Source: a virus
Lineage: Duplodnaviria; Heunggongvirae; Uroviricota; Caudoviricetes
Virus record (IMG/VR): IMGVR_UViG_3300020718_000007
Coordinates: 20,390 to 84,389 of that record
Reading direction: 5' to 3' (one strand)
Length of the DNA: 64,000 bases
Every line of letters begins with the position of its first letter. Positions within the stretch are counted from its first letter, which is position 1. A program made the position numbers and the translations under genes. This document shows positions 1,954 through 13,961 of the stretch, piece by piece. Under the pieces are notes generated by a model that searched no databases, was not told the origin of the DNA, and was given only the letters and a program-made list of their open reading frames with translations.

Positions 1954-3072
1954 ATGAATTTCATCAATAATCTCAAATCTTACGAGGATTGTAAATTAGC
2001 TCTTATAGAGTGTTATGGAGAAGTAGAATTAGCTGCAGAATATCTCAGAAATACAAAATATCCAGATTCAACAATTTATAATTTAAGGGAATCAGTACAA
2101 GCAGTAAAAGAAGGTTGGGGGAGTAAAATCATGAATGGTCTTTCTAAGCATTTAGGTGGAGATGTATCAAAATTAGATACTATTCTTAAAAAGATGGACG
2201 AGACCGAAAATAAGTTTGTAGATAGGGAAAACAAAATTGAAACTGAATATACCCAACTATTTAGGGAATTTGTTCATTTAAAATTTAAAGCCCAGGACAA
2301 GAGTAGAATGGGTCTAGTACAGGTTAGATTACAAGAATTAGAATCTCAAATGAGAGAAATAATTAGATCTTATAATTCCATAATGGATGATTTGGAAAAA
2401 GAGGTTGATATTATAACTAAAGGTAGTAATAGAAAAGCAGATTATTATAACCTCAAAAGGTCAAGGGATTCTGCAGAAGCTAAGAAAAGAAGGGCTGATA
2501 ATAAATATAAATTAACAAAGTATCAGGATAATTCTCATATACAACAAAAAGTAGGAGAGATATTTGGTACTCCAGAGGAAGCACAAAAGGAAGCAGAGGT
2601 AGTTCAAAATCAAGCACAGGAAATACAGCAAAAGGTATCTAAATATGATCCGGGACCAGAATGGAAATCTATTGTATTTAGAGATGCAGAAGCTAAAATG
2701 AAGGATGCGCATGTTGTAGCTACCAAGTACAAGAATGGCCTTTATGAAATGATAAACCAAGAAGAATTAAATCCTTCCGCTAATAAATCGGAACATTCTA
2801 AGAGGGAATCTTCTTTCGTTGCTAAGAAAGGTACTGCTATAAAAAGAATAGAAGGTAAAATAAATAGTGTTAATTCTTTGGCACCTGATGGAAGTACAGA
2901 TCAATTAAAGGATGCTGTTAAATATTATACGGAACAATTAGATAAGATTAAAAAGGAATTAATTGATTACCAATTTCCCCCTTATCAAGGTGTAGTCAAA
3001 AAGAAAAAGAAAAAGAGAGCACCAGTTGCAAAAAAACCAGAACCAGTAGAAAATGGAGAAAAAATTACTTAA
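1954..3072 (+). CDS. Helical/coiled-coil protein, putative head-packaged; EF-Ts-like N-terminal motif; paralog of next ORF
   Basis: 372 aa ORF; DCKLALIECYGEVELAAEYLR motif; LRE/VKE candidate cleavage sites; shares segments with 3053..3979. Confidence 0.55.
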   Translation: MNFINNLKSYEDCKLALIECYGEVELAAEYLRNTKYPDSTIYNLRESVQAVKEGWGSKIMNGLSKHLGGDVSKLDTILKKMDETENKFVDRENKIETEYTQLFREFVHLKFKAQDKSRMGLVQVRLQELESQMREIIRSYNSIMDDLEKEVDIITKGSNRKADYYNLKRSRDSAEAKKRRADNKYKLTKYQDNSHIQQKVGEIFGTPEEAQKEAEVVQNQAQEIQQKVSKYDPGPEWKSIVFRDAEAKMKDAHVVATKYKNGLYEMINQEELNPSANKSEHSKRESSFVAKKGTAIKRIEGKINSVNSLAPDGSTDQLKDAVKYYTEQLDKIKKELIDYQFPPYQGVVKKKKKKRAPVAKKPEPVENGEKIT

Positions 3073-3979
3073 ATATGAAAAATTCATAAACGAAAATCTA
3101 CTGGATACAATATCTGGTGGAATTAAGTCTATGTTTACTACTAGTTCGTCTAAAATAAAAACTATCATCAGTAAGATGATACAGGTAGAAAAAGATTTTA
3201 TAGACAAAACAGATGAACTAAGTTTTAATATCTTTATGGCCCAGACTTTAGATTCTAGGAAAAAAGTAAAAGCCCCCGGAGTAAGTCCATTGTTAAAACA
3301 AAAGGCACTTATTAGTAAAAAAGCATTGGATGCCTTTGAGAAATCAAGGGATAGCCAAATTGCTAATTTACAGGATGATCTAATGAGGATAATAAAAAAA
3401 GATAGAAAGTTAGCAGAATACTATAATAAAGAAGCTGCCAATGCAGATAAGGTTATTGCAGATTATGCTTACAAGGTAGCTAAAAGACACCATAATGGCC
3501 AGTATGCAGATACTTATCAGGCACAATTTTTGGATATGGAAAATCTTAGAAAATCTTTAGGAAATACTTTACCTGCCACTGGAAATAAGACAGACCAGGA
3601 TGGTGAATTAGAAGAAATATCTGAAATAGGTGAATATAAAATAGAAAAACCATATTGTCTTAAATGGGAATTTTTTATACAATACTTACAAGGAAGAACA
3701 GAGCAAGAACTTATTAAATGGAAACATGATGGTTTTGCTATTAAATTAAGATACCTAGACGAACACAAGGAATTAATAAGCGAACTTAATGCAAGAAAGA
3801 AATTCCTAAATACCGAGAAAAATAGATATGCTGCTAATGCACCAATCTATGATGTGGAGATAGAAGAGATTGAGAGAAATAAGAAAGCGGCAGAAAATAG
3901 ATTAGAAGCTTTCAAAAACTATATGAGAATGAAGGTTGACTATATTGGTCGTTTAGTGAATTCAACAGAGGTAAAATAA
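3053..3979 (+). CDS. Putative internal head protein with capsid-targeting-like leader
   Basis: N-terminus MEKKLLKYEKFINE resembles T4 IPIII leader MKTYQEFIAE; helical body. Confidence 0.6.
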   Translation: MEKKLLKYEKFINENLLDTISGGIKSMFTTSSSKIKTIISKMIQVEKDFIDKTDELSFNIFMAQTLDSRKKVKAPGVSPLLKQKALISKKALDAFEKSRDSQIANLQDDLMRIIKKDRKLAEYYNKEAANADKVIADYAYKVAKRHHNGQYADTYQAQFLDMENLRKSLGNTLPATGNKTDQDGELEEISEIGEYKIEKPYCLKWEFFIQYLQGRTEQELIKWKHDGFAIKLRYLDEHKELISELNARKKFLNTEKNRYAANAPIYDVEIEEIERNKKAAENRLEAFKNYMRMKVDYIGRLVNSTEVK

Positions 3980-3993
3980 AATACGATAATAAA

Positions 3994-13333: not shown

Positions 13334-13373
13334 TATATATCGTACTTTAGCAAGAGTTTTTTATTGATATATA
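13334..13373. promoter_or_regulatory. Divergent pair of GATATATA motifs
   Basis: TATATATC at 13334-13341 (minus) and GATATATA at 13366-13373 (plus) face the two divergent genes. Confidence 0.65.
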
Positions 13374-13379
13374 GGATTA

Positions 13380-13961
13380 ATGAAGCATTTAAAGACGTTT
13401 ACTGAATTAACTGAATCATCATCTGCTGGGTCACAAGAAACCAATGATATATTACCATTTAAGTATGCTGGTGTATATGATCCCCGTGTTGGTTATAACA
13501 AAACCGATTTTATTGCAGATGTAGAGATTATGTTAAAAAACATGGATGAACAGGATAAAGAAGATATAAAGGTGATTATAAAATCCTTGACTGGCTCGGG
13601 ATCAGTGGATTCAATTAGGAATCTTCGTTCAAAGGAACTTAATTTATTAATGAAAGCTATAGAAGATTTTTTGGATTCAAAAGCGGATTTTCAATTAACC
13701 ATATATCCAGATGGCTATGTTCTTTGTTTTGAAAATATAAGGGCTGGTAAAAAGAAATATGACATCTATTTTAGTCCAAAGAAAAATGATATTAAAATAG
13801 TACCGCAAACTGGCTCTGCGGTGGAGCCAGAATATATTTCCACAATAGAAAATTTCGATCCCAAAAAATATGGGATCGAAAAAGATGATTTCCTTAAAAC
13901 TATCGAACAGGCGAAAAATATCTTTATGCAGAAAGGAACTTCTGATAAGACTCAACAATAA
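13380..13961 (+). CDS. Putative internal head protein
   Basis: MKHLKTFTELTE leader. Confidence 0.6.
   Translation: MKHLKTFTELTESSSAGSQETNDILPFKYAGVYDPRVGYNKTDFIADVEIMLKNMDEQDKEDIKVIIKSLTGSGSVDSIRNLRSKELNLLMKAIEDFLDSKADFQLTIYPDGYVLCFENIRAGKKKYDIYFSPKKNDIKIVPQTGSAVEPEYISTIENFDPKKYGIEKDDFLKTIEQAKNIFMQKGTSDKTQQ

Follow-up and report, generated by a model that had tools for sequence, protein, structure and literature searches.

A short N-terminal tag, probably a T4-type capsid-targeting tag, on unrelated proteins of a huge uncultured phage and its relatives

Unrelated proteins of a huge, uncultured, T4-related phage and of its relatives begin with a common short tag. The explanation that we favor, and consider probable, is that this is a capsid-targeting tag (CTS) of the kind known from phage T4, which would be removed by a gp21-type protease and would mark proteins as cargo of the head interior. 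We analyzed a stretch of 64,000 nucleotides of this phage, here called the window, which belongs to a 148-kb contig; the same genes are also present on a 474-kb assembly. We demonstrate the motif, its position, its conservation among orthologs, its portability, its link with the protease and capsid protein, and the late-type promoter motif that accompanies it. Because the tag ends in the cut site of the capsid protein, it is probable that the head takes up these proteins and that the protease trims them. The mechanism would be a known one, probably used more widely here than in T4.

The tag has the consensus M-x(0-4)-[ILMV]-x-x-[FY]-x-[EDQ]-[FW]-(0-6 aa)-[LIV]-N-E/[ASG], in which the slash marks the putative cut. 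It occupies about 10-20 residues at the very N-terminus; in 82 of 88 distinct leaders, its first aromatic falls at position 4-8. Positions that the search pattern leaves free are conserved as well: position -3 is hydrophobic, Asn precedes the Glu in 73/88 leaders, and the cut is followed by Ala, Ser or Gly in 63/88. Tags are kept at the level of amino acids, not of DNA.

In T4, IPI, IPII, IPIII and Alt carry the CTS, which the gp21 protease cleaves off (Mullaney and Black 1996; PMC9026906, PMC3012670). Experimental mapping in IPIII assigned residues 4 and 7 to targeting and residues 8 and 10 to processing (PMC9026906). The conserved positions of our tag correspond to the four functional positions of T4 MKTYQEFIAE (targeting: Y4 and F7; processing: I8 and E10), a leader found twice in the T4 genome. 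In both systems, the N-terminal 10-20 residues hold aromatics at i and i+3, behind which come, in those tags here that keep a cut site, an aliphatic residue, any residue and Glu; the proteins that bear the tag have little else in common; and the tag goes together with an S77 protease, a gp23 capsid protein and the capsid type of cut site. The system described here differs in that Asn almost always precedes the Glu, a spacer of 0-6 residues is tolerated, several tags lack a cut site, and the protease is fused to a scaffold of 11-13 repeats. The tagged proteins of a single relative number up to about 20, whereas T4 has a handful, and the putative cargo includes an adenylate kinase, a RimK-like ligase and a MoxR ATPase. 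Unlike the T4 system, this one is known from sequence alone.

A gene for a prohead protease-scaffold protein of 707 aa lies directly 5' of the capsid gene. Its 3' end is at window positions 1..51 (+ strand), and the whole gene covers genome positions 18317-20440, equivalent to window -2072..51 (L004:318-2441). The protein matches Peptidase_S77 in Pfam (E 2.5e-10) and phrog_207, head maturation protease, in PHROGs (E 6e-34); its GELDHP and SSR motifs align with those of T4 gp21, and the catalytic His and Ser motifs are kept. The scaffold part consists of 11 tandem 14-aa repeats, each containing Y-x-E-Y-[LI]-A-E-N, and protease-scaffold proteins of this lineage have 11-13 repeats, each with a tag-like heptad. 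With 8 [LIV]NE sites versus 0.9 expected (p 5e-6), the protease-scaffold protein shows the highest enrichment of any protein. A diverged paralog of the protease is encoded at w37575-38054.

The major capsid protein (77..1846, +) is of the gp23 type (Pfam Gp23, E 6e-39). Its putative maturation site, S40-L41-N42-E43/S44 (nt 194-205), lies within YCH[YF]HSLNE/SAGAY, which is invariant in more than 50 distinct capsid orthologs of 64-92% identity. An earlier note on this DNA, made from its letters, had pointed to an SLNE site in the capsid protein that matches the leaders. This site is indeed present and invariant in relatives, so that the capsid protein shares the cleavage motif of the tag (HSLNE/S), the cleavage itself being predicted. 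The cleavage site of T4 gp23, FGSFLTE/A, also fits the tag 7-mer.

All ORFs for which the earlier note listed leaders exist, and their N-termini read as it described. Enrichment of such N-termini, which the note had expected, is modest to clear in this genome according to the test and overwhelming in relatives. The pattern [FY]xE[FL] occurs within the first 22 residues 8 times versus 2.0-2.6 expected (p ~0.001), with 3 of the 8 matches belonging to a single family (w6888/w40414-41304). The strict tag with cut site is found in just 2 ORFs versus 0.2-0.7 expected, which alone is not significant, and [LI]xE by itself is uninformative in this genome (45 versus 32-34). In window-only statistics, aromatic-x-[ED]-[FLIM] reaches 13 versus 8-9. 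Weak window-only figures for such generic patterns are what would be seen if Lys-rich amphipathic N-terminal helices, which are common in AT-rich phage genomes, had been grouped post hoc, through chance, composition or paralogy. Moreover, 4 of the 11 candidates are one family, and PhoH (w52870) holds FQISLNEEQ, a chance occurrence of SLNE. Against this reading, tagged ORFs in relatives number 18 in G005 (0.6-0.8 expected), 12 in G003 (0.3-0.7) and 5 in G002 (0.4-0.9), with p values down to 1e-19, and positions outside the pattern are conserved. Tags are also conserved among orthologs, exceed expectation in frame across IMG/VR, and are associated with S77 and gp23 (see below). The reading is therefore largely refuted, and we consider it extremely unlikely.

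We also built a position-specific scoring matrix (PSSM) of the heptad, trained on relatives only, with a threshold that corresponds to an expectation of less than 0.6 false positives. Such a scan of the genome with a leader profile had been proposed in the earlier note. It placed 7 N-termini above the threshold, namely w42078, w99241, w11760, w12253, w12528, w109334 and w3053, but scores of w6888, w40414, w40819 and w41304, which the note had included, were not significant. The RimK-like protein w10199 was rejected as a tagged protein in this genome, since its N-terminus, SIKDFVF, has a background score, though its ortholog in G005 is fully tagged.

Among the candidates in the window, only w3053, w3994, w13380 and w42078 appear to have the full tag, with both targeting part and cut site, and they are likely to be processed head-internal proteins. 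The canonical case is w3053 (3053..3979, +), with leader MEKKLLKYEKFINE/N (nt 3053-3094) and a passing PSSM score. Its orthologs begin with MKKYSEFI..LNE/G or M.Y.F.QW...LNE/A, and N13 and E14 are invariant despite 17-30% overall identity. Its paralog w1954 (1954..3072, +), a conserved, basic, helix-rich protein of the head module, opens the w1954-w3053-w3994 operon, is preceded by a GATATATA motif (nt 1928-1935), has a mature pI of 9.3 and is syntenic 3' of the capsid gene in 30 loci. The two have distant homologs in common (for example, L078_2998); the N-terminus of w1954 is a separate 55-aa domain, not a tag. The third gene of the operon, w3994 (3994..6378, +), encodes a conserved protein of 794 aa with a propeptide of a second class, ..NPTFDKLLE..THLVPLNE/A (nt 3994-4089). 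Its orthologs retain NP[LT]F[ED]xL and then [LIM][NS]E/ at residues 20-32, and a 727-aa protein encoded 5' of the protease (w-4316 family) has a similar motif, NP[IV][YF]ES[LM]..S[LI]NE/. Sequence searches of Pfam, PHROG and the PDB gave no match to w3994.

The leader of w13380 (13380..13961, +; 193 aa) is MKHLKTFTELTE/SSSAG (nt 13380-13415), behind a GATATATA motif at nt 13366-13373. The ortholog in G003 reads MRRIYTFNEFDINE/SSAAG, and therefore the mature N-terminus is conserved. The highest PSSM score, 15.2, belongs to w42078 (42078..42761, -; 227 aa), another canonical tagged protein with leader MNKSLLTFKEFQISLNE/D (nt 42711-42761) and a GATATATA motif at nt 42766-42773; homologs have ILSFNGFSLNE/Q (P0004) and LFNFDQYSLNE/K (P0005). 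Behind its leader come a Pro/Lys-rich linker, a domain containing Cys and a domain that probably binds peptidoglycan. The last assignment comes from a weak Pfam match to PG_binding_1 (E 0.04) and from Atlas neighbors, all of which have PG_binding_1 (score 0.87, to be taken as a lead only); a sequence search of the PDB was empty.

Three further proteins, w11760, w12253 and w12528, are likely to be targeted and predicted to stay unprocessed at the canonical site, which is the behavior of T4 mutants that have Asp at the cut position. The very acidic w11760 (11760..12218, -; 152 aa, pI 4.1) has the heptad MAKIFSFDEFCEE (nt 12180-12218), a PSSM score of 12.0 (0.08 false positives expected) and a GATATATA motif 5' of the gene, and is conserved in G001 only. 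Its P3 residue is Cys, which makes cleavage uncertain. The conserved 85-aa protein w12253 (12253..12510, -; PSSM 10.8) has EVLEFKDFL at residues 10-18 (nt 12457-12483), with no Glu cut site; REIL[DENS][FY]K[DQE]F[LM] is kept in 40 loci, and a GATATATA-type motif lies 5'. The leader of w12528 (12528..13316, -; 262 aa, conserved; PSSM 10.0) is MITRYNEFLNP (nt 13284-13316). In this genome, its cut position is Pro instead of Glu, with LME/K at residue 19 as a candidate alternative site, and its orthologs are canonical (MVIRKYSQFISE/S, MIYRYSQFVNE/S, MELKRYTDFINE/N and MKVLRYSEFSLNE/S). An Atlas search gave no match to w12528.

The remaining four candidates form one small family whose first 26-30 residues are common. 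The 136-aa orphan w6888 (6888..7298, -) has the variant leader MKHLKLFEEL (nt 7269-7298), with no canonical cut site, and w40414, w40819 and w41304 are tandem paralogs (40414-40812, 40819-41304 and 41304-41735; +) between neck and baseplate genes, with leaders MKHLKIYEEL, MMKYIKLYEEL and MKMRYIKLYEKL. The first 26 residues of w6888 are 58% identical to those of w40414, and 8 of its 10 initial residues agree with the common IMG/VR leader MKHIKLFEEFLNE. The paralogs have no homolog in four relatives, the closest included; a homolog search of 5.8 billion proteins with w40414 found only itself; and w6888, together with the adjoining homing endonuclease w7351, is missing from the closest relative, G001. 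The tag of this family may have decayed, and what becomes of these proteins is doubtful.

Taking the candidates together, the aromatic pair at i and i+3 (equivalent to T4 Tyr4 and Phe7) is present in w3053, w42078, w11760, w12253 and w12528. Leu occupies the second position of w13380 and the w6888/w40414 family, which therefore agree with the T4 targeting positions only in part. Aliphatic-x-Glu is present in w3053 (INE), w42078 (LNE), w13380 (LTE), w3994 (LNE) and the capsid protein (LNE), and is absent from w12253, w12528 (LNP), w11760 (CEE) and the w6888 family. The count of about a dozen unrelated proteins given in the earlier note is consequently an overestimate, given that it includes paralogs and that several of the proteins have no cut site: the leaders are real, and the eleven proteins amount to about eight independent ones, since four are one family. 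No Pfam or PHROGs match was found for w1954, w3053, w3994, w6888, w11760, w12253, w12528, w13380 or w40414-41304.

Tagged genes also have a late-type, promoter-like motif in common. A GATATATA motif precedes w1954, w11760, w12253, w12528, w13380 and w42078, as well as the protease and tail genes. Most leaders had been said to have their own (G/C)ATATATA-type motif. The total of GATATATA in the window is at chance level (13 versus 11 +/- 3.4), so that only placement before start codons is informative. Genome-wide, 22 of 29 GATATATA copies lie at most 60 nt 5' of a start codon. ATATATA occurs at most 60 nt upstream of 6 of the 7 top-scoring genes versus 28 of 153 genes overall (p 1.4e-4), and in relatives the motif precedes 12/21 tagged genes versus 47/328 others (p 2e-5).

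Tag and cut site persist in orthologs of w3053, w12528, w13380, w42078 and w3994 as the rest of the sequence diverges to 17-40% identity. Across five genomes, 43 tagged proteins represent 36 unrelated families, and 82 tagged examples from IMG/VR represent 63. In relatives, the tag is found on an SLT transglycosylase, a wall-binding protein similar to OmpA and a Tad3-like inhibitor of Thoeris, along with adenylate kinase, RimK-like and MoxR proteins. The adenylate kinase of G000 is untagged, that of G003 has a heptad and that of G005 is fully tagged, and RimK-like and MoxR/VWA proteins have likewise gained or lost the tag among orthologs. Judged by their sequences, the wall- and defence-related proteins are consistent with delivery, as is w42078 of this phage with its probable peptidoglycan-binding domain; the tagged adenylate kinase, MoxR and RimK-like enzymes are unexpected cargo, and the tag may therefore have some role outside packaging. 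Comparable sets of tags were not found in the whole genome of Tenacibaculum phage PTm1, the nearest cultured relative with the same protease-scaffold design, or in the 40-kb capsid neighborhoods of LR756500 and the Lak megaphage Lak-A2.

A less mobile role is conceivable, in which the motif does no more than extend the site by which the prohead protease recognizes genuine head-assembly proteins, and the proteins of the window are structural helpers that are trimmed or degraded, neither portable cargo nor injected effectors. Indeed, 10-40 related loci have w1954/w3053, w3994, w12253 and w12528 conserved in synteny with the capsid gene, the products of w1954 and w3053 are basic and helix-rich, as scaffold or core proteins often are, and the tag 7-mer recurs in every scaffold repeat and in the T4 gp23 cleavage site. 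These conserved, syntenic genes of the head module make up about half of the candidates in the window, and their products may be internal proteins of a core or scaffold-like kind and not effectors that are injected. As an account of the tag itself, we consider this reading unlikely. The tag is also found on enzymes and on wall- and defence-related proteins that have untagged orthologs, and on the 63 unrelated IMG/VR families; w1954, w3053 and w3994 show no enrichment of [LIV]NE sites in their interior and would therefore survive as mature proteins; and the T4 aromatic positions were mapped to targeting, not processing (PMC9026906).

Association with the proposed machinery was assessed on IMG/VR contigs of at least 50 kb, of which 17 had an in-frame tag and 6 had only out-of-frame matches. 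S77 was found on 13/17 versus 0/6 (Fisher p 0.002), and gp23 on 12/17 versus 0/6. Among IMG/VR pattern matches, 69% are in frame with an ATG (37.5% expected), and the tag occurs on classic T4-like contigs as well as on huge-phage contigs. These data also bear on the reading that the tag is recognized by another enzyme (a radical-SAM maturase, a RimK-like or an AsnB-like protein) or is an address for another compartment. Genes for AsnB-like w8797 and RimK-like w10199 are conserved within the head module, between tagged genes, in 15-46 loci, and adenylate kinase and MoxR are tagged in relatives. However, RimK is present on 1 of the 17 tag-bearing contigs as against 13 with S77, a radical-SAM gene (PF04055) is absent from G000, G003 and G005, and the tag ends exactly in the capsid maturation motif, so we regard this reading as highly improbable. 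The idea in the earlier note of a T4-like leader served by a gp21-type protease is, by comparison, supported in sequence by the S77 gene 5' of the capsid gene, the invariant SLNE/S site of the capsid protein, the canonical leaders of orthologs, the N-terminal enrichment and the link with S77 and gp23.

The loci of internal proteins (IPs) in T-even phages are reportedly variable. As with those proteins, the leaders here are conserved, the mature parts are exchangeable and the genes vary between close relatives; w6888, w40414-41735 and w42078 are missing from a relative with a 92%-identical capsid protein. Unlike them, the genes described here belong to a very distant lineage (Bacteroidota-type huge phages) and are scattered over head and tail modules, not gathered in one locus. 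CTS-like basic proteins are known in T-even phages T2L, T4D and T6 (PMC9026906). In phiKZ, 201phi2-1 and SPN3US, ejection or inner-body proteins are processed by gp175/gp245 (PMC5694885, PMC7411985). These systems resemble the present one in belonging to huge phages, in the processing of many proteins of the head interior by a prohead protease related to that of T4, and in a diverged protease paralog. Their propeptides mostly exceed 100 residues and are cut after (S/A/G)-x-E, whereas here there are 10-20 residues and [LIV]-N-E. We rejected long propeptides of that type for the present proteins, the tags of which have only 10-32 residues, with Leu, Ile or Val three before the cut. A looser analogy may be drawn with encapsulin cargo-loading peptides, short linear peptides that send unrelated enzymes inside an HK97-fold shell; those are usually C-terminal and uncleaved, work without a protease or scaffold, and have no sequence similarity to the tag.

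For the tagged proteins, we infer docking, cleavage, retention in the head and injection. An amphipathic N-terminal tag, [ILMV]-x-x-[FY]-x-[EDQ]-[FW], with [LIV]-N-E usually 0-6 residues further on, would serve as the CTS, and its two aromatics would dock the protein on the scaffold core during prohead assembly. The protease, active within the prohead, would then cut after the Glu, at the same type of site as in the capsid protein (SLNE/S) and, many times over, in its own scaffold part, and the mature protein would remain in the head with the DNA. For T4 propeptides, the papers cited here describe an affinity for the scaffolding core and name no docking partner. A bolder proposal, which we offer tentatively and think rather less probable than not, is that in this lineage the tag is an address label, freely gained and lost, that loads the capsid with a ready-made toolkit to be delivered along with the DNA (proteins that degrade or bind the wall, a Tad3-like protein against Thoeris, an adenylate kinase, a ligase of the RimK-like type and a MoxR/VWA pair), and that it docks by imitating one repeat unit of the scaffold. 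A PSSM made from the scaffold repeats did not retrieve N-terminal leaders in any of the five genomes; therefore, the imitation idea depends on the common degenerate 7-mer. A predicted complex of residues 1-60 of a w3053-family N-terminus with the repeat region of the scaffold (residues 285-505) scored 0.00, which counts neither for nor against binding.

If the tag works as it does in T4, it would provide a listing, from sequence only, of what huge uncultured phages bring into the cell at the onset of infection: anti-defence proteins, wall-active proteins and, unexpectedly, enzymes of a housekeeping type. The tag-like repeats of the scaffold suggest a concrete docking mechanism. The T4 CTS would then be no curiosity of T-even phages, and behind it appears to be a widespread and ancient feature of heads of the gp21/gp23 type.

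The N-terminal leaders are real. An earlier note had read them as T4-like capsid-targeting sequences cut by the head protease and carried by about a dozen unrelated, injected proteins. On sequence evidence, leader-directed targeting and cleavage is the best-supported reading, and we consider it rather probable, but the number of proteins and the word "injected" are overstated. All eleven quoted N-termini were confirmed at their ORFs (named here by window start, with negative numbers upstream). Four of these ORFs (w6888, w40414, w40819 and w41304) form one small family with the first 26-30 residues in common, and w1954 and w3053 are paralogs, because a single gene in distant relatives matches both.

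Enrichment of the leaders at N-termini is modest in this genome alone and overwhelming in its relatives. Here, [FY]xE[FL] occurs eight times within the first 22 residues (2.0-2.6 expected, p ~0.001), with three of the eight matches contributed by the w6888/w40414 family; [LI]xE alone was uninformative in this genome's N-termini. A stricter pattern requires, in the first 30 residues, an aromatic, any residue, a polar residue, Phe or Trp, 0-6 residues, and then [LIVM][NST]E. This genome has only 2 matching ORFs, against 18 in G005 (0.6-0.8 expected), 12 in G003 (0.3-0.7) and 5 in G002 (0.4-0.9), all three related genomes. Positions left free by the pattern are also conserved: three before the first aromatic lies a hydrophobic residue, the residue ahead of the Glu is Asn in 73 of 88 leaders, and Ala, Ser or Gly follows the putative cut site in 63 of the 88.

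We also scored the heptad, the targeting part of the leader, with a position-specific matrix (PSSM) trained on the relatives only, with the cut-off set at a score giving fewer than 0.6 expected false positives. Seven N-termini of this genome exceed it: w42078, w99241, w11760, w12253, w12528, w109334 and w3053. In the w6888/w40414 family and w13380, Leu occupies the second aromatic position, which lowers their scores. A useful negative control is a PhoH-like ATPase (window 52870-53568, minus strand), whose N-terminal region contains FQISLNEEQ, a chance match to the w42078 leader FQISLNED; SLNE alone therefore proves nothing. The w11760 product (window 11760-12218, minus strand) is an extremely acidic 152-aa protein (61 Asp or Glu, pI 4.1) with T/D/A/E-rich repeats and F-D-E-[FY] at both ends (MAKIFSFDEF... 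and ...IETFDEYFA). It may mimic DNA or balance charge as a head protein.

Conservation was assessed in 80 related loci, retrieved with the capsid protein as query (capsids 64-92% identical), and in four related genomes (97-271 kb). Relatives keep the gene order protease, capsid, w1954, w3053, w3994 and, further on, w8216, AsnB-like, RimK-like, w12253 and w12528. The maturation-type site attributed to the capsid protein holds up: YCH[YF]HSLNE/SAGAY (a slash marks the putative cut) is invariant among the related loci. Orthologs of w3053 start MKKYSEFI..LNE/G or M.Y.F.QW..LNE/A, and Asn13 and Glu14 are invariant in this family though overall identity is only 17-30%. Those of w12528 start M..[KR]Y[ST][EQ]F[IV][NS]E/S, the w13380 leader is MKHLKTFTELTE/SSSAG here and MRRIYTFNEFDINE/SSAAG in an ortholog, and F..[FY]SLNE/ persists in w42078 homologs from other metagenomes. 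Because their codons vary while the amino acids are conserved, the tags are not a DNA repeat. A second motif, NP[ILV][FY]ES[LM] followed 5-20 residues on by [LIM][NS]E/, is common to the w3994 family (window 3994-4089) and a 727-aa protein upstream of the protease (w-4316, genome 16073-18256, and orthologs); these two large proteins flank the protease-capsid pair. The w-4316 copy in this genome has lost its LNE, and canonical sites seem to be lost in several orthologs (w12528, w-4316) of this genome and its closest relative.

About half of the window candidates are conserved head-module genes, and an alternative reading is that these could encode components of the head core or interior instead of injected effectors. 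Others vary: w6888, the three tandem paralogs at w40414-41735, and w42078 have no counterpart in the closest relative, whose capsid protein is 92% identical, and therefore lie in fast-changing spots. Also missing there is w7351, a NUMOD3/TnsA-like endonuclease gene divergent to w6888. These genes (window 6888-8241 and 40414-42761) are recent insertions or fast-changing cargo spots. Inside the head module, 15-51 related loci carry three genes (window 8216-11671). Their products are a P-loop-like 198-aa protein, an AsnB-like amidotransferase, and a fusion of a RimK-like ATP-grasp ligase with a retropepsin-like domain, the last of which has an ortholog with a full tag, MSGRKILNFFSFLNE/A, in G005.

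The reading as targeting leaders draws on T4, in whose genome the tag MKTYQEFIAE occurs twice. Residues 4 and 7 of that tag mainly govern targeting, and residues 8 and 10 processing (PMC9026906, section 2.6); Asp at position 10 blocks processing, not targeting (PMC9026906). These four mapped positions are exactly the four conserved here (two aromatics, an aliphatic and Glu), and the T4 gp23 site, FGSFLTE/A, fits the same 7-mer. By the logic of this mapping, w12528 (which has LNP), w12253 and w11760 would be targeted but unprocessed. Two tag sequences, MEKKLLKYEKFINE and MNKSLLTFKEFQISLNE, are possible stand-ins for the T4 IPIII tag.

Suitable head genes are present. The gp23-type major capsid protein (window 77-1846, Pfam E 6e-39) has its nearest named relatives, at 31-45% identity, in Lak megaphages, other uncultured huge phages and Tenacibaculum phage PTm1. 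Directly upstream on the plus strand lies a 707-aa prohead protease-scaffold gene (genome 18317-20440, window -2072 to 51, L004:318-2441 in a retrieved stretch). The N-terminal part of its product (about residues 1-280) is a gp21-type prohead protease, which matches Peptidase_S77 and phrog_207 (E 6e-34) and has GELDHP and SSR motifs alignable to T4 gp21. Recognition of the tag by a radical-SAM enzyme is excluded, as no such gene occurs in this genome, G003 or G005. A 159-aa paralog of the protease N-terminal domain (window 37575-38054, plus strand; phrog_207, E 4e-19) lies among neck genes, sharing 53 nt with the end of w36404. It has GELGFP in place of GELDHP and is probably a dead protease, because the catalytic His is replaced; a diverged protease paralog is also found in SPN3US-like phages (PMC5694885).

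The window covers bases 20390-84389 of a 148,389-bp IMG/VR phage contig. CheckV estimates this contig as 52% complete, and proteins identical to its own occur on a 473,921-bp ENA assembly (ERZ27271905), of which 10 kb past the contig end was covered. Just upstream of the contig start in that assembly (L277:5787-9929), a gp2-like DNA end protector is followed by two tandem Portal_T4 genes, whose products (587 and 595 aa) resemble each other at the N-terminus. The N-terminus of the end protector, MDFKKIYEEALTE/AGS, is similar to the w6888-family variant of the tag.

The protease protein is the genome's most [LIV]NE-enriched protein (8 versus 0.9 expected, p 5e-6). At residues ~290-500 it has 11 tandem 14-residue repeats (11-13 in relatives), each with Y-x-E-Y-[LI]-A-E-N. 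The unit, [SN]-I-x-Y-x-E-Y-L-A-E-N-L-D-x, contains a T4-tag-like heptad ending in an [LI]-A-E cut-type site. The degenerate 7-mer is internal in all other proteins only 2-4 times per genome, and T4 gp22 lacks such repeats. The similarity suggests that the tag may dock as a mimic of a scaffold unit, or that tag and repeats may simply carry the protease's extended recognition motif. The connection is a loose one: the leaders were not retrieved by a PSSM made from the scaffold repeats, and a prediction of a tag-scaffold complex spoke neither for nor against docking. A 72-aa ORF, w97806, is similar to the repeats.

The promoter-like motif proposed to accompany these genes fared unevenly. The count of GATATATA in the window is not above chance, yet the motif precedes nearly all tag candidates, the protease and the tail genes (tail/baseplate module from w29000 onwards), and 22 of 29 copies genome-wide lie at most 60 nt upstream of a start codon. 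ATATATA precedes 6 of the 7 top-scoring genes versus 28 of 153 overall (p 1.4e-4) and, in G005, 12 of 21 tagged genes versus 47 of 328 (p 2e-5).

The tag is attached to diverse proteins. Grouped by their mature parts, the 43 tagged proteins of five genomes make up 36 families. Those tagged in relatives include an SLT transglycosylase, an OmpA-like protein, an adenylate kinase, a RimK-like ligase, two MoxR-type ATPases and a Tad3-like Thoeris inhibitor (E 4.5e-21). The adenylate kinase is untagged here, has the heptad in G003 and the full tag in G005, and a MoxR/VWA pair that is untagged here has the tag in both G002 and G003. As a lead only, the C-terminal end of w42078 is probably a peptidoglycan-binding domain, given a weak Pfam match and Atlas neighbors.

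The searchable literature describes the tag in T4 and its near T-even relatives and, for phiKZ-like phages, long propeptides; large repertoires of tagged proteins in environmental or huge phages were not encountered there. We scanned IMG/VR for ATG-A, 5-20 bases, and codons for F-x-E-F-[LI..]-N-E, which matched at least 120 stretches. Among the 132 matches listed, the ATG is in frame for 91 (37.5% expected), and 81 open ORFs of at least 50 residues, such as MKTFKEFINE/S and MKHIKLFEEFLNE/G. Counted per ATG start, the matches listed give 82 leader ORFs in 63 families, 48 of the 82 with Ser, Ala or Gly after the cut. For contigs of at least 50 kb among these matches, S77 proteases occur in 13 of the 17 whose tag is in frame and in 0 of the 6 whose matches are all out of frame (Fisher p 0.002), and gp23 in 12 of 17 versus 0 of 6. 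RimK as a tag partner is excluded, since it is present in only 1 of the 17 tag-bearing contigs. Chance or composition is excluded by the enrichment in relatives, the conserved free positions, the in-frame excess and the S77/gp23 association. Among the tag-bearing contigs listed, proteases of two kinds occur, short T4-like ones (188-227 aa) and long fusions with a scaffold part (636-819 aa). These results make the tag a feature of gp21/gp23-type phages in general, beyond this lineage.
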